The notes under the pieces: generated by a model
What the model saw: the letters and a program-made list of their open reading frames with translations, nothing else
Told to the model about the DNA's origin: nothing
The model's database searches: none
NCBI GenBank assembly: GCA_903959905.1
Contig: CAJBYO010000005.1
Span: 20,674-84,673, forward strand
Reading direction: 5' to 3'
Source of the DNA: an uncultured Bacteroidales bacterium
Lineage (GTDB): Bacteria > Bacteroidota > Bacteroidia > Bacteroidales > FEN-979
Length of the DNA: 64,000 bases
Shown here: positions 1,574 through 63,660 of the stretch, in pieces
How positions within the stretch are numbered: position 1 is the first letter of the stretch
How the letters are laid out: each line of letters opens with the position of its first letter
Translations under genes and position numbers: made by a program

Positions 1574-4081
1574 ATGAAAAAGTCTACTCTCAGTTTCAGT
1601 CTGCTTCTGTTCATTTCATTGATCCTGCAGCCTTTAATGATGTTTTCGCAGACCAACCAGTACCTTCACTTTGACAAGGTCGACGATTTTGTACAGTTGC
1701 CTAACGGTTCGCAGTACGTGTCGGGTGGAAATCAACTCTCGATGACCGGCTGGTTTTTTTGCGATGCCCTTGCCTACGGACAGGGATATATGGGTTTTCG
1801 GGCAGGGTCAGGGACAGCAGAATTCTATATACTCCAGTTGAATACCGGGGTTATGGAATGCCGGCTGGTTACTACGGCAGGTTTTTTTGAATATGTTGCA
1901 CCTGCCAATACGGCGATTCCACAGGTGTGGCAACATATGGCATGGATATACGACGGGACCTCCATCAAACTCTATGTGAATGGAATACTGAAGGGCAGCA
2001 AGCCGGCATCCGGAACTTTTCTCGGCCCGGCTGTAGCATTTGGTATCGGGAAAAGCATTCTTGGCGGGTTTAACTTTGTGTATGGCGGCCGCATTGATGA
2101 GGTCTCCGTGTGGAACAAGGCCCTCACACAAAGCGAAATCCAGAATATCATGGCCAATGAACTCACAGGAACAGAGGCCAACCTCCAGCTATATTACAAG
2201 TTCAACCAGGGTGTGCCGGGTGGAAATAATACCTCCATTTCCAAGCTTGACTGTGAAATCGGAACAGGTGAACGGGATGGTGATCTGATGAACTTTGCCC
2301 TGACCGGTGCGACTTCCAATTTCAACGGAACACTTGACCCGGGTTACCAGGCCATCTCATTTCCGGTGATCCCGCATCATCTTACCACCGACCCTCCCTT
2401 TGATATCCAGGCAACAGCCACATCGGGACTTCCGGTTAGCTTTGAAGTATTATCCGGGCCGGCCACGATCAGTGGCAACACGGTTACCCTCACCGGCGCC
2501 CAGGGTGAAGTAAGCATTAAAGCGACGCAAGGTGGCAATGGCACCTTTAATCCGGCAGATCCCGTTATTAACAAGTTCATGGTCATTGATCCCATCCTGC
2601 ATGTTCCGGATATTGAAGCCAGGCACCCGCTTGCAGGCGATGTGCATGTGCCCTTGCTTTCAAAAATACTCCTGTCAACTTATTCTACCATCACCTATCC
2701 GACATTATTCAGTGTAGCGGAGGTGAAGTTCAAAATTAACAACGAAACGATACCGGCCCAAACCTTTCAAAACGGACACTTCATTGCCTGGTGGTCGCCA
2801 CCAAACTGGGGAGATTACACACTTACCATTATTTCGACAAATAACTTCGGAGCTTCTGCAGAGCAAACAGTCAACATAAAGATTGTTCCCGATGCTGTCG
2901 ACATGGAAGTGGTGGCGGCACAGGGTGTCTGGCTGAATCCAAATAATGTCACGCAAACCGTCGCTGCTAATTTGCCCTCTTACCTGGGTGCATTCAACAA
3001 GGTAACTGCCACACTGGCGGTTACATGTCCTGCGGGTGGTTGCGGCGAATGGGACAGGGTGGCCAGTGTGGATCTCAAAGGCCATGACGGGAAATGGTAT
3101 GAAATTATCCGGTATATCACACCCTATGGTGTTCCATGTTCACACAACATTGATCTTACCGACTATATGTCGCTGTTACTGGGAAAGGCAGAATTCAGGT
3201 TTAATTGCGGAACCCTCGATAATGGCTACAATTACAAACTTACCTTGCATTACACCAAGGGGACCCCTGCACATTTATACAGTACGGTTCATGAAGTGTG
3301 GAATGAAATCTATCCCTTCGGAGATTACAGCAATCTCCAGCCTGTGGAGTTGCAAACATATGAGTTTCCCGACAATGCAGTTGCCGCGAAACTGAAACTT
3401 GTCTCAACCGGCCATGGCTGGGGAGACCTGAACACAAGCAATGCTGCCGAATTTTACAATGCCATTCACCACATCTGGGTTAACAACGTGCAGACTTTTG
3501 AACAGCATAACTGGTACGACTGCAATCCGAACCCCGATGCCTGCCAGCCTCAGAACGGGACCTGGTATTATGACCGTGCCGGATGGTGTCCTGGTGCCAT
3601 TGCCCAGTGGTATGATTACGACATGACGCCTTACGTTGCAGGGAACACCGTGGATTTGAAATATGTCTTTTATGAAAATTATGTCGACCTGTGCCATCCC
3701 AGCAACCCAAATTGTGTAACGGGTGTTACCTGCACCAATTGCGCCGACGGGTTCAATCCAACCCTTGATGTAGCCTGCAACCTGGTGGTATTTTCAGAGA
3801 ACCCGGTATTGACCGGACTGGATAAGCGTAAAGCATCCTCCTCCTCATTCAGTATCAGGCCAAACCCTGCCATCAGTAGTGTTGAGGTTTATGCCTTTGG
3901 TACTCCCGCCACACAGTCGTTCCCGGTGCAACTGCTTTCCATGACCGGAACAGTATTGGGCCAGTATGAGTGGGATGGAAAATCAGTGCGACTGGATCTT
4001 TCACAATTTCCAAGGGGTATCTACCTGGTGAAGATCAGCACATCGGATAAAACGGAGATGAAGAAGCTGGTTCTTCAGTAA
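1574..4081 (+). CDS. Secreted LamG-domain protein with PNGase-F-like C-terminal region and T9SS type-A C-terminal sorting domain
   Basis: In-frame ATG at 1574 gives signal peptide MKKSTLSFSLLLFISLILQPLMMFSQ. LamG motif GRIDEVSVWNKALTQSEIQ. TGHGWGD..AEF..HHIWVNN..W..DRAGWCPG resembles the peptide-N-glycosidase F C-terminal domain (from memory). The C-terminus IRPNPA..GIYLVKI..KKLVLQ is a T9SS CTD. Lies immediately downstream of susD. Confidence 0.75.
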   Translation: MKKSTLSFSLLLFISLILQPLMMFSQTNQYLHFDKVDDFVQLPNGSQYVSGGNQLSMTGWFFCDALAYGQGYMGFRAGSGTAEFYILQLNTGVMECRLVTTAGFFEYVAPANTAIPQVWQHMAWIYDGTSIKLYVNGILKGSKPASGTFLGPAVAFGIGKSILGGFNFVYGGRIDEVSVWNKALTQSEIQNIMANELTGTEANLQLYYKFNQGVPGGNNTSISKLDCEIGTGERDGDLMNFALTGATSNFNGTLDPGYQAISFPVIPHHLTTDPPFDIQATATSGLPVSFEVLSGPATISGNTVTLTGAQGEVSIKATQGGNGTFNPADPVINKFMVIDPILHVPDIEARHPLAGDVHVPLLSKILLSTYSTITYPTLFSVAEVKFKINNETIPAQTFQNGHFIAWWSPPNWGDYTLTIISTNNFGASAEQTVNIKIVPDAVDMEVVAAQGVWLNPNNVTQTVAANLPSYLGAFNKVTATLAVTCPAGGCGEWDRVASVDLKGHDGKWYEIIRYITPYGVPCSHNIDLTDYMSLLLGKAEFRFNCGTLDNGYNYKLTLHYTKGTPAHLYSTVHEVWNEIYPFGDYSNLQPVELQTYEFPDNAVAAKLKLVSTGHGWGDLNTSNAAEFYNAIHHIWVNNVQTFEQHNWYDCNPNPDACQPQNGTWYYDRAGWCPGAIAQWYDYDMTPYVAGNTVDLKYVFYENYVDLCHPSNPNCVTGVTCTNCADGFNPTLDVACNLVVFSENPVLTGLDKRKASSSSFSIRPNPAISSVEVYAFGTPATQSFPVQLLSMTGTVLGQYEWDGKSVRLDLSQFPRGIYLVKISTSDKTEMKKLVLQ

Positions 4082-6833: not shown

Positions 6834-6910
6834 CTCTGTGGTTCTCTGTGTCTTCTCTGTGTACCTCTGTGTAACCAATTCATTACACAGAGGGTCACAG
6901 AGAAAAAGAG
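6834..6910. repeat. CTCTGTG-unit hairpin element (copy 1)
   Basis: Four tandem CTCTGTG-containing units followed by inverted TACACAGAG / CACAGAG. 6855-6863 pairs with 6884-6892. Confidence 0.7.
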
Positions 6911-6990: not shown

Positions 6991-9900
6991 ATGCGGGGTA
7001 TCTTTTTATTGCTTTTTTTTATCTTTTATGGTGGCGTATTATCGGGCCAGAACCCCGACCTGGTGTTCCATCATATCACGGAACACGAGGGGCTCAGCAA
7101 CAATATCGTGAATTGTTTTCTGAAGGACAGCCGCGGATTTTTGTGGATTGGCACCTACAACGGGCTGAACCGCTATGACGGCAGCAGTTTTACCATTTTC
7201 AAACAGGGGAAAGACAGTTGTACCATGGCTGACAATACAGTTCATTCCTTGTGTGAGGATACGAATGGCAACATCTGGGGCGCCAACGAAAGGGGTATAT
7301 TCTGCTATGTGATAAAGGATAATATTTTCAGGAACTATTTCATCCCCAAAAAAGAAGATATCCCCAGCATACATAATATTCTCTGCGACCGGAAGGGTAT
7401 CATCTGGGCGGGAGGATACTCCGGATTGTACAGGTATGATTCTTCAAAAGACAGCCTGGTAGAATGCGGGAGCCAGTCATACCTGAAGCGTTCTGCCTAT
7501 GATAAACGGGTTGTTAAAAACGGCATGATTGAAGATCCTTCCGGGAATGGCTTCTGGCTTGCATCTCCAAGGGGCTTGAAATATTTTAATAAAGCGACAC
7601 AACAATATTGTGACTTTTCAACACCCGGGGGAGGCGAATTATTCAAAGATCATTTTATTTCGGCGTTGAATAAGTCGCCTGAAGGGCATTTCTGGTTTTT
7701 TGATAACATCAGCCTTCAGATTATCGGCTTTGACCCGGCCAGCAGAAAAATTCTGAAGGTGATCCGGCTGGATGATCAATACAAAAATTTTTTCGGCTCA
7801 ACCATTTTTGAAGATAATGAGCATAATATCTGGTTCTCAAGCTGGTCGTATGACATATTGAAGATTTCCTATAAAGGATCACTCAGAATGGAACTGGTCA
7901 AACACAATTCTTCAGATCGGACTACCATTGCCGGGGATTTTTTCTGGGCTGCATGGCAGGACAGTGAAAACACCATCTGGCTTGGAACCGTGGGCGGTAT
8001 TTCAAAGATCAACCTCCGGCAGTTGTTTTATAAACGGTATGATCTGTCGGAAACTGTATTTCCCGAAAAAAAAGGTGTTCAGTTCAATACACTGGTGGAG
8101 GATGATTCTGACCTCAGCTGGTGGATCGGATTTGAATATGACAACAGGCTGCTGCATTATTTTCCCGAAACGGGCTCATTTGACTTCTTTCCTTTACCTG
8201 TCAATGCCCGGGGGCAATCTCAGGGAATTTATTCAATCACAAAACTTGAAAAGGACTTGCTGCTGACTGCTGCCAGTGGCACATGGATATTTAACACAAT
8301 TCGTAAACAGTTTAAACGGTTAAATACAGGTATCCCGGCCATCGATACCCTTAAATTCAGCCGGTTATCAAAGGCGAATGATACATCATACTGGTTTAAC
8401 AATCCGTCCTTTATCATAAACTGGAATCCGGTTGCACACAGATTCCGCCGTTTTACGGCTGATCCGCAGAAAAATAAGCAGCAGGGGTACATTCGCTGCG
8501 TAAGGTCTGCCGGTAAAGATGCCGTCTGGATGGCGCTTAAATATACGGACCTGGGCTATACTTCAGGCACAAGTGACCGGATTACTCAGATTTCGCTGGA
8601 TGAAAGCGATATGGGATATCAATCAGGTTTTATCTGGGACTTATGTACTGACCGGAATGGAACGGTATGGATGGCTAATAAAGGACGCGGTTTGATCTCA
8701 TATAAACCCGTCAGCAAAAAAGTGAAAATATGGGATGAATCAAAAGGCCTTGCATTTAATCATATCCAGGCTGTCATGGCAGATGCCGACAACAGAATAT
8801 GGACGGCAGCCTATAATAAGATTTCAATTTTCAACCAGGTAACGGGTAATTTTTTTAACCTTTCACTGCCATTCACCACCAACTATTACGACTATCGCAA
8901 TGTCATGGTAACCCTTCATAACGGTCACATCATCACCAACCTGAACGGTTTGCTTTTCGAATTTTTTCCCGAACGCCTTAACACCAAACCTATTTTCAGG
9001 ACACCGTTGATAAGTTCAATCAACGATGGTTCCTCTGAAATCCTTGTTTCCGGAAAGCGCTCATTTACTTTCGCGTCGGACAGGAGATTTCTGGCTGTCA
9101 ATTTCGGCATGCTGTCAGACCCGGAGAACTTTCCGTTTTCGTTCGAATACCGGATGGATGGGTTAAGCGATCAGTGGATCGATGCCGGCAAAGCGTCGCA
9201 GGCGGTGTTTGCGCACCTGTCGCCCGGCAAGTATACATTCCGGATAAAAGCAGTGGCCAAAGACCATTCATGGCAGTCGAATGAGACCTCCATTACAGTC
9301 ATCATCAAAACACCCTTTTTCCAGCAGATCTGGTTTTTATCACTGGTAAGTATTCTGATCATTTCTGCAGTTGTTCTTTTTTTCCGGTTCAGGATCAGAC
9401 ACAAGGAAAAACTGATGATGCTGGAAAGCAGGGCCCAGATGCTGGAAAAGGAAAAGACGCTTGTGCTGTACGAAAGCCTGAAGCAACAGCTGAATCCCCA
9501 TTTTCTTTTCAATTCGCTGACCTCGCTGTCGGGACTGATTGAATCAGATCAGAACCTGGCCGGTAAATTTCTTGACCAGATGTCGCGGATCTACCGGTAC
9601 CTTCTGAAAAACCGAAACAGTGATGTGGTGACACTGAAAGAAGAAATAGATTTTGTGCGGCTGTACATTCATATACAGCAGACGCGGTTTAAAGACGGAT
9701 TAAAGGTCTCTCTGCGTGTGGAGGATGAAAACATGTACAGTAAAATTGCACCTGTCACCCTCCAGAACATGCTTGAGAATGCAATAAAGCATAATATCTG
9801 TAATCCGGATTCACCTTTATACATTGATATTTACACAGAGCAGGACTATATAGTTATTAAAAATAATATTCAGCGAAAAAAAGTTGTTGAAACTTCCAAC

Positions 9901-15722: not shown

Positions 15723-15824
15723 AACCACAAAGGCGTCAAAGGATGCACAAAGTCGCACAAAGGGTTGGTGAAAAGGAGTAAGTTTCGTGCGCCTTCGTGA
15801 CGTACTTTGTGCGCCTTCGTGGTT
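15723..15824. repeat. AACCAC...GTGGTT long hairpin (CACAAAGG / CCTTCGTG units)
   Basis: Left arm aaccacaaaggcgtcaaagg..cacaaagtcgcacaaagg; right arm ttcgtgcgccttcgtg..ctttgtgcgccttcgtggtt. Lies between convergent genes. Confidence 0.7.
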
Positions 15825-16930: not shown

Positions 16931-17094
16931 TACCGCAGAGACGCAGAGACGCTGAGAAAAGGAGTTAATTGAGGTGTGTAATTAAGTCCATGTTTCAGGG
17001 TTTACCAAACAAAAAAGAAAAGGTTATACCTTTCTTATGTTAACTCTGTCCCTCTGCGCCTCTGCGGTTATATATTCTGCGTCTCTGCGGTTAA
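16931..17094. repeat. ACCGCAGAG...CTCTGCGGT hairpin element with ~85-nt loop and an extra right-arm copy
   Basis: Left arm taccgcagagacgcagagacgctgagaa at 16931-16958. Right arms 17044-17070 and 17075-17094 (..tctctgcggttaa). Confidence 0.65.
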
Positions 17095-21866: not shown

Positions 21867-21970
21867 AAACCACGAAGGCGACAAAGGATGGCACGAAGGC
21901 GCACGAAGGAGGGTTCCAAATCAGAAAAACTTTGTGCGACTTAGTGTGTACTTTGTCGCCTTTGTGGTTT
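21867..21970. repeat. AACCAC...GTGGTT long hairpin, inverted orientation relative to 15723-15824
   Basis: The outer 20 nt (21867-21886 / 21951-21970) pair with a single G.T. Inner unit 21901-21908 pairs with 21930-21937. Confidence 0.7.
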
Positions 21971-24845: not shown

Positions 24846-24934
24846 ATTTGCGCGGTTTTATGCGCAAATTCACCCAGAGGCGCAGGGAAAAGTATTGTAT
24901 ATCAATCCTCTGCGTCTCTGCGTCTCTGCGGTTA
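24846..24934. repeat. Small palindrome plus a degenerate ACCCAGAGG...CTCTGCGGT element
   Basis: atttgcgc 24846-24853 / gcgcaaat 24862-24869. acccagaggcgcaggg 24872-24887. cctctgcgtctctgcgtctctgcggtta 24907-24934. Confidence 0.6.
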
Positions 24935-38739: not shown

Positions 38740-38840
38740 AACCACTGAGGCACGGAGGGCACTTAGAAACACTGAGAATTTGTTGTATACGGGTTGAGTT
38801 ATTCTTAGTGGTCCTCGGTGCCCTCCGTGCCTCAGTGGTT
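38740..38840. repeat. AACCAC...GTGGTT long hairpin (CACTGAGG/CACGGAGG units)
   Basis: 38740-38762 is perfectly complementary to 38818-38840 (23 bp). Further imperfect pairing continues inward. A T-run follows on the + strand. Confidence 0.75.
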
Positions 38841-43167: not shown

Positions 43168-44295
43168 TTACACCTGTTCCCAGAAAGTATCTGCATCCGT
43201 GGCATCGAATAATTCATTTATCCAAAACACAGTGTAGAGCTCGTCGTTTCCGGTGTTGGTGATGTTGTGGGTGTACCAGGTTGGCATGTCAATGAAGGAG
43301 GGCTCTGTTCCGGAGAGGTGGAATTCAAGGACCTCACCTGTGCCGATCCTGCGGAGCTGGATGCGGGCCTGGCCTTTGATTACCGAAAAGCGTTCAATTT
43401 TGCGGGTGTGGAAATGGTTGCCACGGGTGAAACCGGGATTGGTGGTTGAAAAGCTGACCTGTCCGCCGGTGTTCAGCCGGATGAGTTCCACAAACGAGCC
43501 GCGGTTGTCGGCATGCTGCACGTATTTCACCGGGTTGTGTTTGCGGATGTCCGTATAACTCCGGAAGGTATTGAAGAGGTTCATTTCAAAGGTGTTACGG
43601 AGGGGTGGGATGGTTCCTTTTTCAAGGTAAACGGTTTTCCAGTCAAGCAGGATCTCAAGCAGTCCGGAAACGCTGATGGTGGCGGTGTGATCCACCCGAA
43701 TTTCGGAAATGATCTCTTTATCCCTGTAATTCCTGATCCGTTGGATAAACTGTTGCACCAGTTCGCCCACGTGGATCAGTTTGAGCTCTGCGTCCACTTC
43801 AATCTTCGGGGTTTCTCCATGGTTGAGCTGGTGGGAGAATGTTGCAATAACGGAATTGTAAAACGGGTTGCCGAAGGGGCCGAATACGTTGGGGATCACC
43901 ATTCCTGAGAAGCCGCCGCCATTGGCTTCAGCCCATTGGGAGAGGAGGATGCGCCCTTCTTTCTTGGATCTGCCATAGGGATTGTCCCGTTCTTCCTGGG
44001 TGGAGGAGGAGAAGAGGATGTGTGGCTTGCTATGTGTGGCTTCCAGGGCCCGGATCAGGTCGGTTACCAGCTGAATGTTGGTTTCGTAAATAACAGCGGG
44101 ATCAGCATGCCTGTTAACGGCGGCAAGATGAACAATGACATCACAGGAGGCGACGAATTTTTCAAGCTGATCGGGATTTTCAAAAAAGGCATCTTCAAAG
44201 GGGAGGACCAGGAATTCCTCCCTGTACAGGGAGATGGTGTTGCATAGATGACTGCCGATGAACCCGGATTGGCCGGTGATTCCGATTTTGAGCAT
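43168..44295 (-). CDS. fnlB: CapF/FnlB-like bifunctional SDR reductase plus C-terminal cupin (UDP-L-FucNAc / L-PneNAc pathway, step 2)
   Basis: N-terminal ITGQSGFIGSHL Rossmann fold. C-terminal cupin RG.HFH....E.F.V..G. The domain order matches S. aureus CapF. Confidence 0.85.
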   Translation of the reverse strand: MLKIGITGQSGFIGSHLCNTISLYREEFLVLPFEDAFFENPDQLEKFVASCDVIVHLAAVNRHADPAVIYETNIQLVTDLIRALEATHSKPHILFSSSTQEERDNPYGRSKKEGRILLSQWAEANGGGFSGMVIPNVFGPFGNPFYNSVIATFSHQLNHGETPKIEVDAELKLIHVGELVQQFIQRIRNYRDKEIISEIRVDHTATISVSGLLEILLDWKTVYLEKGTIPPLRNTFEMNLFNTFRSYTDIRKHNPVKYVQHADNRGSFVELIRLNTGGQVSFSTTNPGFTRGNHFHTRKIERFSVIKGQARIQLRRIGTGEVLEFHLSGTEPSFIDMPTWYTHNITNTGNDELYTVFWINELFDATDADTFWEQV

Positions 44296-44307
44296 GGTTA
44301 TAGGGTA

Positions 44308-45001
44308 GGTTAATGGAACACAGGTGACGCTGATGTGGCAGATTTACACTGTTTTGGGGGACCGAAGAAAGTTGACTGGGATAGATCTGAACTGTGATTT
44401 AGTTAAATATGTTACCATTATCAGCAAATAGACAGAAATCACTTATGGGTGAATATTTTGCGGCGGATTTCGGGTTCTTTGCCGAAATTAAGGAGTAAAC
44501 CGATTTCAAAATCAGTTGCCTTTAGGTAATTAATCAGTTGAGCTTCATGTTCGGGTCGCAATGATTCTGCTGCTTTGATTTCAACAATGATTTTGTCTTC
44601 AACAGTCAGGTCGGCGTAATAATCCCCAACGACCTGGTTGGCATAATAGACTGAAATTGGTTTCTGTTTTTCAACTTTGAAGCCAAAATTTTCAAGTTCT
44701 ATTCTCAGAGAATTTTCATATACCTTTTCGAGGAATCCATAACCAAGTTTATTGTATACAGTGTAAAAGCACCTGATTATTTCTGAGGATAGATCCTGAT
44801 GCAGGTATTCCATGGTTTAATCAGCTAAAAATTGAAAGTGATGATTAATATAAATGGAAGGAATTAGGATTAATGGAACACAGATGACGCTGGTGATACA
44901 GATTTTCACTGATTTATTTCTTGGTTGACAGGTAGAATAACTATTTTTAGATCTTCACGAACCAAACAGTGTCATCAGTTCAATCAGTGTCATCTGTGTT
45001 C
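44308..45001. mobile_element. Repeat-bounded cassette carrying the GxxExxY ORF
   Basis: A ~44-nt direct repeat (44308-44351 and 44868-44911). Arm gaacacaggtgacgctg at 44316-44332 and gaacacagatgacgctg at 44876-44892 are both complementary to cagtgtcatctgtgttc at 44985-45001. Confidence 0.5.
44439..44813 (-). CDS. GxxExxY protein (PD-(D/E)XK-like, PDDEXK_3 family)
   Basis: LGYGFLEKVYENSL (GxxExxY motif), ADLTVEDKIIVEIKA, EAQLINYLKAT. Confidence 0.85.
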   Translation of the reverse strand: MEYLHQDLSSEIIRCFYTVYNKLGYGFLEKVYENSLRIELENFGFKVEKQKPISVYYANQVVGDYYADLTVEDKIIVEIKAAESLRPEHEAQLINYLKATDFEIGLLLNFGKEPEIRRKIFTHK

Positions 45002-45003
45002 TA

Positions 45004-46020
45004 TTACATCGCAATATCTGATCGGATGCTCTCAAGTTCTAACAACAGTTCCATCGTTTGTTCAACATCAAGCTGCCTTGTATTATGCGAAGTATAATCA
45101 TCTGAACCAGCAACCTTCTGCTCTCCTTCTGTAAAAAACTTGTTGTAATTCAAATCGCGGTTATCTGCCGGGATGCGGAAGTAGGCGTCCATGTCGATGG
45201 CTTTCACCATCTCTTCCCGGTTTACCAGGGTCTCATAGAGTTTTTCGCCATGGCGTGTACCGATTATACTGACGGGATTGGAGGCCTTGTACAGCCCGAG
45301 AAGTGCCCGGGCAAGCACATCAATGGTGGCGGCGGGTGCCTTCTGAACAAAGATATCCCCGTTCGAACCGTGCTCAAAGGCAAACAGCACCAGGTCGACG
45401 GCGCTTTCAAGGGTCATCATGAACCGGGTCATGTTCGGGTCGGTGAGGGTGAGGGGCTGGCCGCTTTTGATCTGGTCAATGAGTAGCGGGATCACCGAGC
45501 CACGGGAGGCCATCACGTTGCCATACCTGGTACCGCAGAAAACAGTACCGCTCCCGTTGAGGTTGCGTGAGCGGGCCACCATCACCTTTTCACTCAGGGC
45601 CTTCGACAATCCCATGGCATTAATCGGATAGACCGCCTTATCTGTGCTTAAAACAACGACGTTTTTCACCCCGTTCTCCAGGGCACTGTCAAGTACGTTC
45701 TCGCAACCCATCACGTTGGTTCTCACGGCTTCCATGGGGAAAAACTCGCAGGAAGGGACCTGCTTCAGGGCAGCGGCATGAAACACATAGTCAACACCGC
45801 GCAGGGCATTGTCAAGGCTGCGTTTGTCGCGTACGTCGCCAATATAATACTTGATCTTGTCATTCCGGTAATGCTGGCGCATGTCATCCTGCTTCTTTTC
45901 ATCCCGGCTGAAAATCCGGATCTCCCTGAAAAGGTCGGTGTGCAAAAAACGGGCAAGGGTGGCGTTGCCGAATGAACCGGTGCCGCCGGTTATTAAAAGA
46001 ATATCGTTGGGGGTGATCAT
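45004..46020 (-). CDS. fnlA: CapE/FnlA-like UDP-N-acetylglucosamine 4,6-dehydratase/5-epimerase
   Basis: ILLITGGTGSFGNA, IRIFSRDEKKQDDMR, YIGDVRD, VDYVFHAAALKQVPSCEFFP, GTRYGNVMASRGSVIPL. Nearly collinear with S. aureus CapE as I remember it. Confidence 0.9.
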   Translation of the reverse strand: MITPNDILLITGGTGSFGNATLARFLHTDLFREIRIFSRDEKKQDDMRQHYRNDKIKYYIGDVRDKRSLDNALRGVDYVFHAAALKQVPSCEFFPMEAVRTNVMGCENVLDSALENGVKNVVVLSTDKAVYPINAMGLSKALSEKVMVARSRNLNGSGTVFCGTRYGNVMASRGSVIPLLIDQIKSGQPLTLTDPNMTRFMMTLESAVDLVLFAFEHGSNGDIFVQKAPAATIDVLARALLGLYKASNPVSIIGTRHGEKLYETLVNREEMVKAIDMDAYFRIPADNRDLNYNKFFTEGEQKVAGSDDYTSHNTRQLDVEQTMELLLELESIRSDIAM

Positions 46021-46026
46021 TGGGTT

Positions 46027-46453
46027 CTTAGATTTAAGTTTTAAGTATTAAGTTTTAAGGTTTGGCGATTTGGGTTTTAGGGAGTTTATTAAGCCCTGGA
46101 GCATGGCGGAGATTTCTTTGGTTTCGGTGATTAATGGCCTGGTTATTTAGGAGGGTAGAATCCCGATTTTTTCTGCTAAATAGATTTGTGTTCGCCGCTC
46201 GGCTGCTGATCCTTTGGCTATATGTAAAAAACGCACATATTCTTTGGTTGTATCTCTTTCTGCACCTTCTGCTATGTTTGAAGGAATCGATATGGATAAC
46301 CTTGTCATCTGGTCCCTCAGCCCAAATTCCTTACAATCTTTTAAAACAGTATAAACTTCAACCGCAAGTTTGCAGGACCGCTTCCAAACTTCAAGATCTT
46401 CAAACGAACGATAAGCCATGCACTTAAAACTTAAAACTTAATACTTAAAACTG
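46027..46453. mobile_element. Hairpin-bounded cassette carrying the four-helix-bundle ORF
   Basis: 46037-46059 (agttttaagtattaagttttaag) is perfectly complementary to 46430-46452. The arms are built of TTAAGTTT-type octamers. The cassette fills the tviC-stop to fnlA-start junction. Confidence 0.55.
46147..46419 (-). CDS. Four-helix-bundle protein (23S rRNA intervening-sequence protein family, PF05635-like)
   Basis: MAYRSFEDLEVWKRS..LAVEVY.......F.LRDQM.R...SIPSNIAEG..R....E...FL.IA.GS..E. Confidence 0.85.
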   Translation of the reverse strand: MAYRSFEDLEVWKRSCKLAVEVYTVLKDCKEFGLRDQMTRLSISIPSNIAEGAERDTTKEYVRFLHIAKGSAAERRTQIYLAEKIGILPS

Positions 46454-47446
46454 TTTTTTCAGATTCTTCCAGTACCATTCCACCGCAATTTCCAACCCCT
46501 GCTCAAGGTTATATTCGGGCTTATATCCCAGGATTGTCACGGCTTTTTCAATGGATGCATGGGAATGGGGGATGTCGCCTTTGCGGTTGGGGCTGCAGGT
46601 GACGGGTATGCCGGCGATCGCCGGGTCAAAAGCTGCAAGATATTTTTTCAGCAGGGCGGTAAGCTGGTTGAGGTCGTTACGTTCCCCCACGGCTGTGTTG
46701 AATACCTGGTTGATGGCCAGTGGGTTTGTTGTGATGGCGGCCAGGTGGTTCATCTGGACAACGTTGTCAACAAAGGTAAAGTCGCGGGAGTTGGTGCCGT
46801 CGCCGAAAATTCCGGGGGATTCATGGGCCATCAGCAACATGGTGAATTTTGGGATCACCGCGGCATACGCACCCTGTGGGTCCTGTTTCGGGCCGTAAAC
46901 GTTGAAATAACGCAGGCCGATGGTGTCCAGTCCGTAGTTGAGGGCAAATACATGGGCATAGAGTTCATTCACATATTTGGTGACGGCATAGGGTGAGAGC
47001 GGCATTCCGATGTTTTGTTCCACCTTGGGAAGGGTCTCCGAATCGCCGTAGGTGGAGGAACTTGCGGCATAAACAAACCGCCTGACACCAGCATCACGCG
47101 AGGCAACAAGCATGTTGAGAAAGCCCCCGACGTTGACCTCGTTTGTCGTAACAGGATCAATGATGGAGCGCGGAACCGATCCAAGCGCGGCTTCGTGCAG
47201 CACAATGTCTATGCCTTCCGCGGCTTTCCGGCAATCCTCAGGGTTCCTGATGTCGCCAACAATCAGCTTGAATTTAGGATGATCACTGAAGGCTGCCAGG
47301 TTCTCTATGCGACCGGTGGAGAAGTTATCAAGGCAGATCACTTCATTTTCATTCCTGAGCAGGTCTTCACAGAGATTTGACCCGATAAAACCGGCGCCGC
47401 CGGTGACGAGGATGCGGGAGGAGGTTATTTTAGGGTAAGGATACAA
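46445..47446 (-). CDS. tviC: NAD-dependent epimerase (TviC/WbpP-like UDP-GlcNAc(A) 4-epimerase)
   Basis: ILVTGGAGFIGSNLCEDLL, VICLDNFSTGR..NL, YAASSSTYGD, SPYAVTKY. The start is a TTG at 47446 lying on the boundary of a repeat arm. Confidence 0.85.
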   Translation of the reverse strand: MYPYPKITSSRILVTGGAGFIGSNLCEDLLRNENEVICLDNFSTGRIENLAAFSDHPKFKLIVGDIRNPEDCRKAAEGIDIVLHEAALGSVPRSIIDPVTTNEVNVGGFLNMLVASRDAGVRRFVYAASSSTYGDSETLPKVEQNIGMPLSPYAVTKYVNELYAHVFALNYGLDTIGLRYFNVYGPKQDPQGAYAAVIPKFTMLLMAHESPGIFGDGTNSRDFTFVDNVVQMNHLAAITTNPLAINQVFNTAVGERNDLNQLTALLKKYLAAFDPAIAGIPVTCSPNRKGDIPHSHASIEKAVTILGYKPEYNLEQGLEIAVEWYWKNLKKQF

Positions 47447-47610
47447 GTTTTAAGTTTTAAGTATTAAGATTTAAGGGGGTTTTGCTTTGAGGATATGGAG
47501 TTTAGGAGGCCGTGGGTGTTTTATTATAGTTCGTATCTTTTCAAGATTTCAGTCTTTTCAAACGCCCGATAAGCCCTACTTAAAACTTAAATCTTAAAAC
47601 TTAAAACTTC
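47445..47610. repeat. Cargo-less copy of the TTAAGTTT hairpin cassette with a remnant of the four-helix-bundle gene 5' end
   Basis: Arms 47445-47478 and 47574-47610 (~28/31 complementary). 47540-47576 (ttcaagatttcagtcttttcaaacgcccgataagccc) is homologous to 46390-46419, but the ATG is lost. Confidence 0.6.
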
Positions 47611-47612
47611 TT

Positions 47613-48953
47613 CTATACCCTTCCTGATATCTCGCTCCGGTCAACAATCCCTTTAATATCGTAAAGTACGGATGGGGTTTTTCGTAATTTTTTAAGGTTG
47701 AGTTTCTTGAACTTATCGTGGGCGACTGCGAGGATAACGGCGTCGTAGTGGGAAACGCGTGACGCGTGACGCGTGACAGGTGACGGTAGTTCAGTGAGAA
47801 GGTCAAGAGCATATTCATGTTTGACTTCGGCTGGGCTGGCCCAGGGGTCGTATATGTCGACCCGGCAGCCGTAGTCCTGCAGTTCGGTGATAACATCAAT
47901 GACTTTGGAGTTGCGGATGTCGGGGCAGTTCTCCTTAAACGTGATCCCGAGAACCAGCACATGACTTTTATTTACAGGGATCTCCTGCCTGATCATCAGT
48001 TTGACAACCTGACCTGCGATCCAGGCGCCCATCGTATCGTTCATCCTGCGACCCGCCAGGATAATCTCAGGATGATAACCGGCCTCCTGTGCCCTTTGGG
48101 CTAGATAGTATGGGTCAACGCCGATACAATGTCCGCCTACCAGGCCGGGTTTGAATTTAAGGAAGTTCCATTTGGTTCCGGCGGCTTCCAGCACATCACC
48201 AGTGTCAATTTTAAAGTGGCTGCATATCCTGGCGATCTCGTTCACGAACGCGATGTTGATGTCGCGCTGTGAATTTTCAATGACTTTCGCCATTTCAGCC
48301 ACCCTGATGGAGGCGGCCTTGAAAGTGCCGGCTTTTACGACGGTATTGTATAGGTCATCAACAAAGCTGGCTACCTGCGGGGTTGATCCGGAGGTGACTT
48401 TTCGGATGGTTGTGAAGGTATGTTCCTTGTCGCCCGGGTTGATCCTTTCGGGAGAATACCCGGCAAAAAAATCTTTGTTGAATTTCAAGCCGGAACTCTT
48501 TTCAATCATGGGGATGCAGTCATCTTCAGTACATCCCGGGTATACCGTTGATTCATAAATTACCACAGCGCCCCGTGAAATTACTTTGCCGATGGCTTCA
48601 CTCGCCTTGATCAGGGGTGTAAGATCCGGTCTGTTGTTCTTGTCGACCGGTGTGGGTACAGTGACAATGAATACGTTACATGCTTTCAGGTGATCCGGGT
48701 CTGACGTGATCAGTAACCCGTTGGCCGAGTTTTTATTTTTCTTTTCTGTCCGCAGCACAGATACGAGATTGTCGTCTGACACTTCCAGTGTTGAATCGTG
48801 GCCGTCGTTCAGTTCCCTGACTCTGCCGGCATTGATATCATAACCTGCAACCGGGAATTTCTTTGCGAATTCCACGGCCATGGGAAGTCCAACGTAACCA
48901 AGGCCGATAACGGCGATAACGGGTTCTTTGATGAGGGGGAGGGTTGGTGTCAT
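47613..48953 (-). CDS. tviB: Nucleotide-sugar dehydrogenase (TviB/WbpO-like UDP-GlcNAc/GalNAc 6-dehydrogenase)
   Basis: ATG 48953 (MTPTLPLIKEPVIAVIGLGYVGLPMAVEF). GGHCIGVDPYYL. The track extension to 49049 runs through a tandem-repeat leader. The C-terminal part contains an in-frame heptad array (47757-47784). Confidence 0.85.
   Translation of the reverse strand: MTPTLPLIKEPVIAVIGLGYVGLPMAVEFAKKFPVAGYDINAGRVRELNDGHDSTLEVSDDNLVSVLRTEKKNKNSANGLLITSDPDHLKACNVFIVTVPTPVDKNNRPDLTPLIKASEAIGKVISRGAVVIYESTVYPGCTEDDCIPMIEKSSGLKFNKDFFAGYSPERINPGDKEHTFTTIRKVTSGSTPQVASFVDDLYNTVVKAGTFKAASIRVAEMAKVIENSQRDINIAFVNEIARICSHFKIDTGDVLEAAGTKWNFLKFKPGLVGGHCIGVDPYYLAQRAQEAGYHPEIILAGRRMNDTMGAWIAGQVVKLMIRQEIPVNKSHVLVLGITFKENCPDIRNSKVIDVITELQDYGCRVDIYDPWASPAEVKHEYALDLLTELPSPVTRHASRVSHYDAVILAVAHDKFKKLNLKKLRKTPSVLYDIKGIVDRSEISGRV
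47757..47784. repeat. Four tandem heptamers (GCGTGAC x3, AGGTGAC) inside the tviB coding sequence
   Basis: Read directly. On the - strand they encode ..PVTRHASRV.. within the C-terminal part of TviB. Confidence 0.8.
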
Positions 48954-48961
48954 AAGGATGA

Positions 48962-49038
48962 GCTGATGTGTTAACGTGTTGATATGCTGATGTGTTGATG
49001 AACTGATAGCTAATGGCTGACAGCTGACAGCTGACAGC
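48962..49038. repeat. Tandem short-unit repeats in the tviB leader (GCTGATGTGTT x2, GCTGACA x3)
   Basis: 48962-48972 and 48986-48996; 49016-49038 gctgacagctgacagctgacagc. Confidence 0.75.
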
Positions 49039-49107
49039 TTCCAGGGCATAGCTTCGCCCGGTCGGTCACAGGGCCAATACCAAGTATCAAAGATTTTTTA
49101 CTGATGG

Positions 49108-49115
49108 CAAAGTTA
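49108..49115 (-). promoter_or_regulatory. Bacteroidota -7 box (TAnnTTTG) for the tviB operon
   Basis: The reverse complement reads taactttg. The ~150-nt leader would contain the tandem GCTGACA/GCTGATG units. Confidence 0.3.
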
Positions 49116-49139
49116 ATTATTTTGAAGGGCTGGCAAATG

Positions 49140-49718: not shown

Positions 49719-49741
49719 AGTGTTGGGTTTTAGTGAAAGGA

Positions 49742-49873
49742 ATTTACGATTGGACGATTGAGAGATTGCAGATTGAATTGTTAAATTTCCGATTGACGAT
49801 TGATAGCGCTATCAATCGTAGATCATCAATCGTTAAATTCAATCTGCAATCTCTCAATCGTCTAATCGTAAAT
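49742..49873. repeat. 132-nt near-perfect palindrome (TTTACGATTG-type units)
   Basis: 49742-49779 pairs with 49836-49873 (38 nt, 1 G.T). Central palindrome tgatagcgctatca is centred at 49807/49808. The element ends 3 nt before the pspC stop codon. Confidence 0.8.
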
Positions 49874-49876
49874 CAA

Positions 49877-50074
49877 TTAGTTTCTTGTCGGTTCTTCCGG
49901 AATAATGATCCACGATATCAGGTAGGCGAGGAATCCCATTCCAAAGGCAAAAAATGAAACTGCCCAGAGTACCCTTACGAGCACCGGGTCGAGGGTGAAA
50001 AAGTTTCCAAGTCCGCCGCATACCCCGCCAAGGATGCGGTCGTTTTTTGAACGGTAAAGTCTTTTTGGTTCCAT
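49877..50074 (-). CDS. pspC: PspC-domain membrane protein
   Basis: From ATG 50074: MEPKRLYRSKNDRILGGVCGGLGNFFTLDPVLVRVLW followed by a TM segment. Confidence 0.7.
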   Translation of the reverse strand: MEPKRLYRSKNDRILGGVCGGLGNFFTLDPVLVRVLWAVSFFAFGMGFLAYLISWIIIPEEPTRN

Positions 50075-50211: not shown

Positions 50212-50298
50212 TACCGCAGAGGCGCAGAGTCGCAGAGGATTTTGGTATTGTTTATAATAAAGTTGAATCTGCTTTGCGTATCTGCGTCTCTGCGGTTA
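50212..50298. repeat. ACCGCAGAG...CTCTGCGGT hairpin element
   Basis: Left arm taccgcagaggcgcagagtcgcagagg at 50212-50238; right arm tctgctttgcgtatctgcgtctctgcggtta at 50268-50298. Confidence 0.7.
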
Positions 50299-54895: not shown

Positions 54896-54947
54896 CCCGT
54901 CCGCCCATCTACCCGTCCGCCCGTCCGCCCGCTCACCCGTTCACCCA
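54896..54947. repeat. Tandem C-rich ~8-11-nt units (CCCGTCCGCC-type) upstream of the kinase gene
   Basis: cccgtccgcccatctacccgtccgcccgtccgcccgctcacccgttcaccc. Confidence 0.7.
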
Positions 54948-54970: not shown

Positions 54971-55008
54971 CCCTCTTACTTTACATTTTACACCCTACAT
55001 TTTACATC

Positions 55009-55983
55009 ATGAAAAAGATCCTCGGAATGGGCAATGCCCTGGTTGACATTATGATCCCGATTGAAGGAGACAACATCCTTGAACTTCTTGCACTACCGAA
55101 AGGCAGCATGCAACTTGTTGATATTGACCGCAGCAATGCAGTGCTGGACGCCCTTAAGAGTTACCAGAAAAGCCATTCGGCAGGAGGGTCGGCAGCCAAC
55201 ACCATCCACGGACTCGCCATGCTGGGTGCAAAAACCGGCTATATCGGCGTTGTGGGAGAGGACGAACTGGGCGGCTACTTTGTACGCGACCTTATCAAGG
55301 CTGGTGTTGACCCGCTTATGGTACACAGCAGGCAGGAAACCGGGCGGGCGGTTGCGCTCGTAACCCCCGATTCTGAGAGAACTTTTGCCACCTTTCTAGG
55401 AGCCGCCATTGAATTGTCGCCCGAACACCTTACTTCGGGTATGTTTAAGGGCTACAGTTTTTTTCACATTGAGGGCTACCTGGTTCAAAATCATGAACTG
55501 ATATTGCGTGCGGTTGAACTGGCGAAGGAAAACGGATTGCTAGTGTCTCTTGACATGGCCAGTTACAATGTCGTGGAGGCAAACAGGGAGTTTTTGCACG
55601 ACATTATTGTAAAATATGTTGATATTCTCTTTGCCAATGAAGAGGAGGCCCTTGCTTTCACAGGCCACGTTCCCGAAAATGCCGTTCATGAGATCTCAAA
55701 ATTTGTGGAGATCGCGGTCGTTAAGACCGGCGGCAACGGATCGCTGGTAAAAACAAATGCGGAGTACTGCGAGATTGGGGTTATTCCTGTCCAACCGATT
55801 GATACGACTGGTGCAGGCGATCTTTATGCTTCAGGTTTCCTTTTTGGCCTGTCCAAAGGACTTCCAATTCAGGTATGTGGTGAACTTGGTGCCCTCCTGG
55901 CCGGAAATGTTATTGAGTTTATGGGATCAAAAATGACGGAAGAACGCTGGGAGAAAATCAGGGGTGAAGTGTTAAATAGTTAA
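55009..55983 (+). CDS. PfkB-family carbohydrate/adenosine kinase
   Basis: GGSAANT, ..FANEEEA.., DTTGAGDLYASGFLFG. Confidence 0.8.
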   Translation: MKKILGMGNALVDIMIPIEGDNILELLALPKGSMQLVDIDRSNAVLDALKSYQKSHSAGGSAANTIHGLAMLGAKTGYIGVVGEDELGGYFVRDLIKAGVDPLMVHSRQETGRAVALVTPDSERTFATFLGAAIELSPEHLTSGMFKGYSFFHIEGYLVQNHELILRAVELAKENGLLVSLDMASYNVVEANREFLHDIIVKYVDILFANEEEALAFTGHVPENAVHEISKFVEIAVVKTGGNGSLVKTNAEYCEIGVIPVQPIDTTGAGDLYASGFLFGLSKGLPIQVCGELGALLAGNVIEFMGSKMTEERWEKIRGEVLNS

Positions 55984-55990
55984 CGACGAC

Positions 55991-56039
55991 AGGTGACGCG
56001 TGACGCGTGACAAGTGACAAGTGACAAGTGACAAGTGAC
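55991..56039. repeat. Seven tandem heptamers (AGGTGAC, GCGTGAC x2, AAGTGAC x4)
   Basis: Starts 8 nt after the adenosine-kinase stop. The same heptamer family occurs in-frame inside tviB (47757-47784). Confidence 0.8.
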
Positions 56040-56071: not shown

Positions 56072-56116
56072 CATTATCTGCATTGTCTGCATTGTTTACA
56101 TTGCCTGCATTTCATT
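56072..56116. repeat. Tandem ~9-nt units (CTGCATTGT-type)
   Basis: cattatctgcattgtctgcattgtttacattgcctgcatttcatt. Confidence 0.6.
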
Positions 56117-63086: not shown

Positions 63087-63660
63087 ATACCTCACCCCCC
63101 TGCCCCCTCTCCGCCCTGAGAGGGGGAGGATTCGCCATAAATGGTTTGGCGTGATTGCATACTTTTTCAGTGCTATGAAAGTTATTGCTCTTTTAAAGAA
63201 GTTGATTGATTTTAAAATGCAAATTCATGGCGTTTATTAAAACAAGTTACCGGAACGATTTTTATTTTGGAGCTTCACGGGAATTGATAACGCGAGCCAA
63301 AAAATTGAGAAAGGTTGAAACAAACGCAGAGCGGATTTTATGGGATGCTTTGCGAAATAAACGATTTTCTCATCTGAAATTCAGAAGACAACACCCGGTA
63401 AAATGGTTTATTGCAGATTTTTATTGTCATGAGATCAAGCTTATCATTGAGGTTGACGGTGGGATTCACAACCAAGAAGACAAGGCAGCATATGACACGG
63501 GCCGGATGCATGAAATAGAAAGTTTAGGACTTATTGTCATTCGTTTTTCAAACGACGAAATCCTGAATAACCTGACATCTGTTCTCAATCAAATTCAACG
63601 AACCATTCAAAGCGAATCCTCCCCCTCTCAGGGCGGAGAGGGGGCAGGGGGGTGAGGTAT
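63087..63660. mobile_element. 574-bp element: DUF559 ORF bounded by perfect 49-bp terminal inverted repeats
   Basis: 63087-63135 (atacctcacccccctgccccctctccgccctgagagggggaggattcgc) is the exact reverse complement of 63612-63660. Each arm contains its own palindrome, ccccctct/agaggggg. Confidence 0.6.
63227..63655 (+). CDS. DUF559 endonuclease-domain protein (Vsr/restriction-endonuclease-like fold)
   Basis: AR.LRK..T.AE..LW..LR......KFRRQHP.....ADFYC.E.KL.IEVDG..H........D..R......G..V.RF.N.E. The last ~15 codons lie inside the right inverted repeat. Confidence 0.8.
   Translation: MAFIKTSYRNDFYFGASRELITRAKKLRKVETNAERILWDALRNKRFSHLKFRRQHPVKWFIADFYCHEIKLIIEVDGGIHNQEDKAAYDTGRMHEIESLGLIVIRFSNDEILNNLTSVLNQIQRTIQSESSPSQGGEGAGG

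Follow-up and report, generated by a model that had tools for sequence, protein, structure and literature searches.

An operon with occupied junctions

We analyzed a 64-kb stretch of DNA from an uncultured Bacteroidales bacterium (hereafter, the window), which carries an operon with the gene order tviB-tviC-fnlA-fnlB and, between these genes, two small open reading frames (ORFs). Searches with Pfam and NCBIfam place the six genes at 43168-48953, all on the minus strand; tandem repeats were mapped with Tandem Repeats Finder (TRF), and about 400 other loci formed the comparison set. All three operon junctions are occupied by an element bounded by inverted repeats (Table 1): a gene-less remnant (the shell) between tviB and tviC, a cassette of about 430 nt with a four-helix-bundle (4HB) gene of family PF05635 between tviC and fnlA, and a cassette with a GxxExxY gene between fnlA and fnlB. 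A first-pass annotation of this DNA, made from the sequence alone, had described such elements at these junctions, with all cargo ORFs oriented like the operon, and the strand of the six genes bears out the latter point.

The elements are set tightly against the operon genes. There are 3 nt between the tviB stop codon (TAG, 47613-47615) and the shell's 5′ arm, tviC starts with a TTG (47444-47446) at the arm boundary, and its stop codon (46445-46447) falls within the 5′ arm of the 4HB cassette. On the basis of the alignment with homologues, the ATG at 48953 is likely to be the start of tviB; an ORF start listed at 49049 is probably too far upstream. The two cargo ORFs gave PF05635 or PF13366 as their sole matches, and no transposase family was matched in Pfam, NCBIfam, PADLOC or PHROG. 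Rfam gave zero matches in the whole window at gathering thresholds, and likewise none in 44200-47700 at E values up to 1; it reported no rRNA in the window, and the 4HB cassette is flanked on both sides by protein-coding genes (tviC and fnlA).

Table 1. Position of the genes, arms and hairpins discussed in the text (window coordinates)
Feature	Position	Strand	Basis
tviB-like UDP-GlcNAc 6-dehydrogenase, first gene of the operon	47613..48953	-	NCBIfam NF011729, 5e-163
Shell 5′ arm, AAGTTTT heptamer array, 4.6 copies	47578..47609	-	TRF; 28/31 inverted repeat; 29/31 identical to 5′ arm of 4HB cassette
Shell interior, remnants of 4HB gene	47476..47577	-	Alignment and 500 shuffles
Shell 3′ arm, last 2 nt overlapping the tviC TTG start	47445..47475	-	Inverted repeat, TRF, fold
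tviC-like UDP-GlcNAcA 4-epimerase	46445..47446	-	Pfam, NCBIfam, direct sequence reading
4HB cassette 5′ arm, heptamer array, 4.4 copies, providing the tviC stop codon	46422..46452	-	Inverted repeat and TRF
PF05635 four-helix-bundle gene with internal in-frame TAA	46048..46419	-	Pfam 1.2e-28, profile positions 1-85 of 106; NF008912 5e-40
4HB cassette 3′ arm, repeat block stopping 6-9 nt upstream of the fnlA ATG	46030..46063	-	Inverted repeat, TRF, fold
fnlA (UDP-GlcNAc 4,6-dehydratase/5-epimerase)	45004..46020	-	TIGR04130, 3e-167
GxxExxY cassette 5′ arm, GAACACAGATGACACTG then 9-nt units	44967..45006	-	Inverted repeats, TRF
Internal second copy of the 3′-type arm, forming with the 5′ arm a local hairpin of ~137 nt upstream of the ORF	44870..44915	-	Direct repeat; fold z -5.3
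GxxExxY protein (PF13366, PD-(D/E)XK fold), 124 aa, full length	44439..44813	-	Pfam 1.6e-42, TIGR04256 2.9e-41
GxxExxY cassette 3′ arm, ending 14 nt upstream of the fnlB ATG (44295)	44310..44355	-	Repeats; paired with the 5′ arm in the centroid fold
fnlB/wbcJ-like reductase, last gene of the operon	43168..44295	-	Pfam, NCBIfam
Cargo-less intergenic hairpins	6834-6902, 15746-15821, 16934-17066, 21892-21946, 24908-24930, 38743-38837, 50215-50294		Tandem CRCNGAK units

The 4HB cassette and its gene-less sister

A perfect 23-bp inverted repeat (46037-46059 / 46430-46452), built of AGTTTTAAG-type heptamers, encloses the cassette between tviC and fnlA and extends to 27 nt at 96% or 30 nt at 90% identity. 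The perfect repeat, the tviC stop codon inside its arm and a repeat block ending 6 nt from the fnlA ATG (46018-46020) had all been described in the first-pass annotation and are present as described. The same annotation had read the arms as octamer arrays and the cargo as a 90-aa 4HB ORF, and both descriptions need correction: TRF resolves all four TTAAGT-type arms, those of the cassette and those of the shell, into 7-nt tandem arrays of 4.4-4.6 copies, and the ORF as called (46147-46419) is cut short by an in-frame TAA (46147-46149), past which the same frame stays open for 32 codons, encoding the fourth helix that the ORF lacks (ITRPLITETKEISAMLQGLINSLKPK), to a TAA at 46048-46050 within the 3′ arm. 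Homologues measure 114-127 aa for nearly all of the 120 best listed, and 115-120 aa among those aligned. The exact 90-aa product was found in 37 blocks of the sequence collection, showing that this is a genuine nonsense allele and no sequencing error. Allowing up to 3 mismatches, a 17-mer of the arm occurs 12 times against 0.13 expected, and the TTTAAGT arms are confined to two operon junctions, the second being that of the shell.

At the tviB/tviC junction, the arms of the shell (47445-47475 / 47579-47609) are complementary at 28 of 31 positions and have 103 nt between them. Part of this interior (47557-47577) matches the first 21 nt of the 4HB ORF at 18 of 21 positions, with the ATG now AGG, and another part (47495-47515), likewise 21 nt long, matches the C-terminal helix region at 16 of 21; the local similarity score of the interior exceeded those of all 500 shuffles, and about 270 nt of the gene are lost. 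Since pieces of both the 5′ and the 3′ portion of the gene are kept, the shell is evidently derived from a sister copy of the 4HB cassette by internal deletion. The first-pass annotation had the complementary arms and the 5′ remnant with its lost ATG right; its spacing of 95 nt has to be corrected to 103 nt, and it had missed the 3′ piece. Both 4HB copies in the operon are thus decaying, one through a nonsense codon and the other through an internal deletion.

Between them, the 3′ arm of the shell (47446-47475) and the 5′ arm of the 4HB cassette (46423-46452) form a 30-nt inverted pair of 90% identity around the whole of tviC, 993 nt apart, which could permit alternative long-range pairing or recombination.

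The GxxExxY cassette and related hairpins

At the fnlA/fnlB junction, positions 44316-44332 and 44876-44892 are each complementary to 44985-45001, and the GAACACAGATGAC-type arm starts 2 nt past the fnlA stop codon. Two arms complementary to a third, around a GxxExxY ORF, had been claimed here and were found at those positions. The two copies of the 3′-type arm, one upstream and one downstream of the ORF, constitute a 46-nt direct repeat of 85% identity. The arm occurs 4 times against 0.12 expected and belongs to a separate, sequence-conserved family with CACAGAT or CACNGAT-like units: a cross-phylum arm unit (GAACACGGATGACACGGAT and variants) is conserved in 74 GxxExxY loci, the window arm is a member, and a Draconibacterium GxxExxY arm is nearly identical to it. 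We found no solved structure of a GxxExxY protein, and PDDEXK_3 is recorded as being of unknown function (PMC3424549). A possible identity as a defence system was discarded, PADLOC giving a weak Cas4-like match for the GxxExxY protein and none for the 4HB protein.

The GxxExxY arm motif also occurs apart from any cargo. At least 6-7 hairpins in the 64-kb window have this motif but no cargo, and the double-unit motif is found 27 times against 1.9 expected. Their arm units are CGCAGAG, CACGAAG, CACTGAG and CACAGAG, with a frequent terminal AACC...GGTT, and the CRCNGAK hairpins lie between convergent, divergent and co-oriented genes. A shared "polarity" of these hairpins was considered and dropped as meaningless, since an inverted repeat is identical on both strands.

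The window further contains a third type of cassette, with an ORF of 149 aa (63206-63655) of the DUF559 family (Vsr-like nuclease fold) and a perfect 45-bp inverted repeat (63087-63131 / 63611-63655, ATACCTCACCCCCCTGCCCCCTCTCCGCCCTGAGAGGGGGAGGAT). Each of its arms has a small palindrome of its own, and the C terminus of the ORF is encoded by the 3′ arm. The three cargo families of the window are accompanied by three unrelated arm types, namely TTTAAGT for 4HB, CACAGAT for GxxExxY and the 45-bp repeat for DUF559.

Flanking arms are a property of both protein families

Our sample, drawn from many phyla, comprised 80 loci with diverse 4HB genes and 80 with GxxExxY genes, and we scored, for each gene, the best inverted repeat between its two flanks; a 9-sequence alignment of 4HB proteins was too diverse for the locus search, and a 4-sequence alignment was used instead. 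The median score was 16 for 4HB genes (n = 71) and 13 for GxxExxY genes (n = 74), compared with 7 for control genes of the same loci (n = 444), and scores of 15 or more were reached by 55%, 46% and 2% of the genes, respectively (Mann-Whitney against controls, p = 5e-28 for 4HB and 6e-24 for GxxExxY). Complementarity of the arms also exceeds that of shuffled sequences, a comparison that the first-pass annotation had put forward as a possible refutation: of 82 4HB cassettes, 78% outscored all 20 shuffles.

The 4HB arms are mainly period-7 arrays with a median tract of 31 nt, that is, 4.4 units, and GGGAAT-like arms flank the Xanthomonadales 4HB genes sampled (L227, L223). Pairing spans the gene, and self-pairing inside single flanks equals that of controls (10%), for which reason we rejected the idea that each arm is a small hairpin of its own resembling a repetitive extragenic palindromic (REP) sequence. 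Among 5′ arms, 51% close all three reading frames, compared with 9% in shuffles, an effect to be expected whenever a 7-nt unit holds a stop triplet.

Arms follow the cargo lineage

At E below 1e-10, the 4HB protein of the window is matched by over 4,000 database clusters; the top matches, 70-81% identical, belong to unrelated taxa, and a homologue of 80% identity is located between wzm and wzt and has TTAAGTG arms. Starting from P0003, a protein 80% identical to that of the window, we assembled a close subfamily of 82 4HB ORFs, whose loci matched P0003 at 56-86%. A flanking inverted repeat with a score of 13 or more is present in 76% of them, and the arms consist nearly throughout of AGT[GT]TT[AC]AG heptamers, in hosts as distant as Bacteroidales, Desulfobacterales, Verrucomicrobiota, Planctomycetota, Gammaproteobacteria, Nitrospira and one actinobacterium.

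Among 109 cassettes, the sharing of arm 6-mers rose steadily with protein identity: it was 0.02 for proteins 35-45% identical and 0.65 for those above 80% (Spearman 0.51; Mantel 0/300). In the 25 closest 4HB pairs listed, dN/dS (the ratio of nonsynonymous to synonymous substitution rates) was 0.04-0.28 at dS 0.3-2.3, with the exception of one near-identical tandem pair, and the arm unit was unchanged; by this measure, the 4HB cargo protein is under purifying selection. The arms evidently are part of the element and not of the host locus, since their units follow the cargo lineage and persist unchanged where synonymous sites are nearly saturated. We further infer that they are sequence-specific parts of it, most simply recognised by its own protein.

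Two further observations concern these homologues. In a Gemmataceae locus (L373), two adjacent 4HB genes (1082-1435 and 1501-1854) are 96% identical with a dS of 0.01, which looks like a very recent tandem duplication of the cassette. In addition, among the matches listed, close homologues of the window 4HB protein lie mostly on contigs of 0.5-3 kb; contigs this short would be expected if the repeat arms break metagenome assemblies.

Relatives differ in which junctions are filled

Comparison with other fnl operons suggests that the junctions were originally tight. In 42 of 88 operons, fnlA and fnlB are separated by 30 nt or less and frequently overlap; in the nearest complete relative (L001) they overlap by 8 nt, and the gaps among tviC, tviB and fnlA measure 18-28 nt in two other loci (L014 and L077). 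Some wider gaps are unrelated: fnlA/fnlB gaps of ~440 nt in about 15 fnl loci were examined as candidate cassettes and rejected, for they contain a genuine cupin/WxcM-like operon gene.

In L081, the closest relative that turned up (its FnlA is 81% identical), a 4HB cassette lies upstream of fnlA and has other arms, the fnlA/fnlB junction contains an empty hairpin, and fnlB is followed by a GxxExxY cassette. Between CACGAAT-type arms, the tviC/tviB spacer (3291-3583) of another member of the Bacteroidia (L008) holds a decayed GxxExxY gene that retains 45 N-terminal codons and, at the C terminus, the LGLLINFG region but has lost its middle; the same locus has an empty hairpin of the window arm family at fnlA/fnlB and several CACGGAT hairpins past fnlB (7340-7720). 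With L006 and L100, this makes four loci with cargo-less hairpins at fnl junctions. The presence or absence of cassettes among the junctions of relatives, which the first-pass annotation had made the measure of its proposal, therefore does vary, from the plain overlap of L001 to the junctions filled or empty elsewhere in L081 and L008; and its statement that the hairpin outlives the gene is supported both by the internal-deletion shell of the window and by the decayed or empty shells of these two relatives.

Across the comparison set, cassettes are closely fitted between co-oriented genes of all kinds. Of 153 4HB cassettes, 87% have the orientation of their upstream and 82% that of their downstream neighbour, and the upstream neighbours represent 166 Pfam families. 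The upstream stop codon precedes the 5′ arm by a median of 5 nt and falls inside it in 28 of 101 cases, as in L012 and L006, where the upstream gene runs into the arm and stops there; the next start codon follows the 3′ arm at a median of 13.5 nt. Judged by these comparisons, the cassettes are insertions into normally tight junctions. Such packing may reflect selection on the sites at which insertions are tolerated, not targeting.

Some neighbours recur. The most frequent single upstream neighbour is queA (Queuosine_synth; 11 of 124 4HB cassettes, in L161-L240 and L321-L402), and sugar-nucleotide enzymes and wzm-type ABC-2 permeases are recurrent too.

Origin and persistence of the cassettes

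Taken together, we regard the elements as selfish, IVS-type cassettes (after the intervening sequences, IVSs, of 23S rRNA) bounded by inverted repeats and belonging to two families, which have inserted at stop/start junctions, spread horizontally and are now decaying in this operon, a reading to which we assign a probability of roughly 0.62. In each cassette, a single short gene lies between terminal inverted arms of ~25-45 nt. This reading sustains the first-pass proposal of selfish cassettes at such junctions, in that relatives differ in the presence and position of cassettes, the tight fnlA/fnlB junction is ancestral and the arms travel with the cargo.

Such cassettes could persist as follows. 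Transcription of the operon would carry them along. Stop-containing heptamer arms would close all three frames and end the upstream gene wherever the element lands, and pairing of the arms would loop out the cargo, the stem of at least 23 bp being a plausible substrate of RNase III; both properties would make the insertion tolerated. The cargo protein may recognise its own arms, as the conservation of arm sequence suggests. The PF05635 homologue 2GSC, deposited with 5 chains, is described as a toroidal homopentamer (PMC4990558), and the ring pentamer of this one family member would be matched by the 4-5 repeats of an arm. Candidate routes of mobility are arm-guided recombination or gene conversion, which may be nuclease-driven in the GxxExxY and DUF559 types.

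A number of observations weigh against this reading. The exact proteins were found on 13 contigs from different samples, all with a single arrangement and hence no within-species polymorphism, so that mobility is deduced from the comparison of relatives and not observed. Scans for FnlA in genomes and metagenomes returned best relatives of 79-81% identity and no near-identical relative with another junction state. We found no transposase, target-site duplication or pair of empty and filled alleles among close strains; in the window cassettes, no target-site duplication is evident by eye, the tandem-repeat arms making the ends fuzzy. In roughly one quarter to one half of the family members, no flanking repeat is detectable. 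The covariation of arms and cargo could arise by simple linkage, the argument for recognition resting on arm conservation, and the low C content of the heptamers could produce the three-frame stops incidentally. The fold of the whole 4HB cassette is unexceptional (z score -1.7), its long-range stem nonetheless closing in the minimum free energy and centroid structures, and the shell folds better on the antisense (z -5.6) than on the sense strand (z -4.3). Finally, 131 arm pairs show no excess of G:U pairs on the sense strand (sense vs antisense 25 vs 47, 22 vs 18 and 23 vs 19) and many transversions. With such mismatches and a fold that favours the antisense strand, the sequence lends no support to an RNA-level role of the stem; what maintains complementarity looks to be recent copying or a process acting on the DNA, and not selection for RNA pairing.

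This last result bears on the possibility that the stems serve the host as mRNA elements, that is, as RNase III sites, stabilisers or insulators setting operon expression, with the ORFs as passengers. At 23-30 bp, the stems are long enough for RNase III, their positions coincide exactly with cistron boundaries, their arms hold stops in three frames, those of the shell are still 90% complementary after loss of the gene, and empty hairpins recur at fnl junctions elsewhere; by analogy with the Coxiella IVS (PMC4990558) and Correia elements (PMC2649163), whose stems are cut by RNase III, processing of the stems is plausible. Stems that serve the operon are nevertheless hard to reconcile with the many fnl operons that are tight or overlapping without them, with arm units that track the cargo lineage and neither host nor operon, with the great functional variety of the neighbouring genes and with the lack of a sense-strand G:U bias, and the strong purifying selection on the cargo indicates that it is no mere passenger. 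We therefore consider a host-serving origin improbable. Somewhat better placed, though in our view still unlikely, is an order of events in which hairpins came first, spreading alone like REP sequences, short tandemly repeated repetitive (STRR) sequences or MITEs (miniature inverted-repeat transposable elements), and small genes later homed into their loops, for instance when an empty hairpin was cut and then repaired from a filled copy, with the arms serving as homology. The cargo-less hairpins of the window and the excess of their motif fit such an order, as do the empty hairpin at fnlA/fnlB in L008, which agrees with the window cassette in arm family and junction, and the 46-nt direct repeat, which makes the window GxxExxY cassette resemble an empty hairpin with an ORF and an extra arm added. 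The GxxExxY and DUF559 proteins have PD-(D/E)XK folds and DUF559 relatives include an intron homing endonuclease (PMC3424549), and Xanthomonas has many inverted heptamer pairs for which no cargo is reported (PMC4692102). The sole 4HB shell that can be analysed, however, comes from a filled cassette by deletion; the arm units are specific to cargo subfamilies across phyla, which better fits arms moving with the gene; and local hairpins in single flanks are at control level (10%).

That nothing special is present, merely slippage-prone low-complexity DNA, ordinary terminators or assembly artefacts, could be argued from the short-period tandem arrays that are common across the window and from the over-representation of heptamer arrays in some bacteria (PMC4692102, PMC4679880). 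We give this next to no credence: the arm matches are 30- to 90-fold above chance, 46-55% of family genes have flanking repeats against 2% of controls, the arrangement is the same in the 13 contigs from different samples, no T-runs follow the arms and the arms bracket whole genes, so that arm-occurrence, shuffle, control and Mantel tests all contradict it.

The selfish-cassette reading can be taken further, tentatively and with a good deal less confidence. PF05635 proteins might be ring-shaped, sequence-specific binders of their own 4-5 flanking heptamers, forming with them an autonomous class of mobile cassettes, so far unrecognised and lacking any canonical transposase, across most bacterial phyla; the rRNA IVSs might be copies that landed in rRNA, the GxxExxY and DUF559 cassettes their nuclease-driven counterparts, and the heptamer or CACNGAT hairpins their empty shells.

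Other repeats in the window

Several repeats lie in or near the operon apart from the three elements. A GTGACGC heptamer array of 4.4 copies is found within the tviB coding sequence (47755-47785), where it encodes PVTRHASRV in a loop whose length differs among homologues. The spacer upstream of tviB (48954-49139), which follows a rubrerythrin gene, holds unpaired tandem arrays, GCTGACA in 3.4 copies (49016-49039) and 8-nt ATCAACAC-like units (48961-49015), and a hairpin of ~140 nt with GATTG/CAATC-containing units (49740-49880) has the rubrerythrin gene on one side and a PspC-domain gene on the other. Around the gene at 55009-55983, we identified arrays of CCCGTCCG (4.5 copies), TTTACAT (4 copies), GACAAGT (7.4 copies, preceded by GTGACGC units) and CATTGTCTG (4.4 copies), at 54896-54946, 54980-55007, 55988-56039 and 56072-56111, with no partner arm identified.

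Significance and relation to known systems

PF05635 and GxxExxY are very large families without known function, and heptamer arrays have several times been described without explanation. If our reading is true, heptamer arrays would be the ends of a gene's own cassette and the likely ligand of the protein would be the repeat that flanks it; 23S rRNA would be a single landing site, seen in its IVSs, among those of a far more widespread element. The reading would also account for many spacers of unusual length in operons, those for polysaccharides included, and for some breaks in metagenome assemblies, and annotators would gain a rule for spotting inserts and decayed shells. For the operon itself, it means that the three long spacers are insertions, two of them already degenerating. 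In the open-access literature, we found no paper linking PF05635 or GxxExxY genes to flanking arms.

The nearest known counterpart is the IVS of 23S rRNA (Coxiella burnetii, Leptospira; S23p/PF05635). The Coxiella IVS measures 428-444 nt, with a 28-bp stem and a decaying S23p ORF, and the sporadic distribution of 23S IVSs suggests horizontal transfer (PMC4990558). The 4HB cassette has the same build, in agreement with the IVS-like module proposed by the first-pass annotation: ~430 nt, a terminal stem of ~23-30 bp, perfect over 23 bp, around a decaying ORF, and a cargo of the PF05635/TIGR02436 family, that of the S23p-type IVS ORFs. It differs in lying at an mRNA cistron junction and not in helix 25 or 45 of 23S rRNA, and in having tandem heptamer arms that track the protein subfamily. 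Heptamer repeats with an intergenic 7-nt period are known as cyanobacterial STRR, Xanthomonas GGGAATC and Beggiatoaceae TAACTGA repeats; Xanthomonas has about 70 convergent inverted heptamer pairs per genome (PMC4692102), and such arrays also occur in Bacteroidetes (PMC4679880). These reports treat the arrays as free-standing and of unknown function, and make no link to an enclosed PF05635 gene.

Other systems share single features with the cassettes. The 4HB protein has a PHROG match to Avd at 1e-5, and Avd, an accessory protein of diversity-generating retroelements, has a homologous four-helix-bundle fold (PMC10053308). It is a pentamer that binds nucleic acid and reverse transcriptase. Unlike a retroelement of this kind, the cassette stands alone: the genes inspected in and beside the operon include no reverse transcriptase, and the repeat scan of the operon region revealed no template/variable pair. 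An integron cassette, with its single attC site at the 3′ end and an integrase nearby, differs in turn: here both flanks of the ORF have an arm, the two arms pair with each other, hairpins within one flank are no more frequent than in controls, and no integrase occurs among the operon neighbours. The PD-(D/E)XK fold assigned to the GxxExxY protein by Pfam would also be in keeping with a homing endonuclease gene.

REPtrons, which join REP sequences to a REP-associated tyrosine transposase (RAYT) gene, consist of one small gene with inverted copies of a repeat on either side; the repeat is also dispersed in the genome as many gene-less hairpins. The GxxExxY type resembles them most, dispersed gene-less hairpins being present (27 motif occurrences vs 1.9 expected), and differs in that no Y1 (IS200/IS605-like) transposase is found, the cargo being a PD-(D/E)XK or four-helix-bundle protein, and in that the arms pair across the gene. 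Measured against insertion sequences and MITEs in general, the cassettes have terminal inverted repeats and occur in multiple copies at unrelated sites that differ between genomes, and their cargo matches no recognised transposase.

Among short elements, finally, the Correia elements of Neisseria (Correia repeat enclosed elements, CREE, or Neisseria miniature insertion sequences, NEMIS) and MITEs are alike in being intergenic, co-transcribed and bounded by terminal inverted repeats that form mRNA hairpins, and in this they resemble the shell and the CRCNGAK hairpins; the mRNA hairpins of Correia elements are cut or protected by RNase III (PMC2649163; reviewed in PMC3184786 and PMC2229807). Correia elements have TA target duplications, of which no counterpart was identified here, and no coding version, whereas coding versions exist here and the shells derive from them. 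On balance, IVS- or MITE-like palindromic elements are the class in which these cassettes are best filed.

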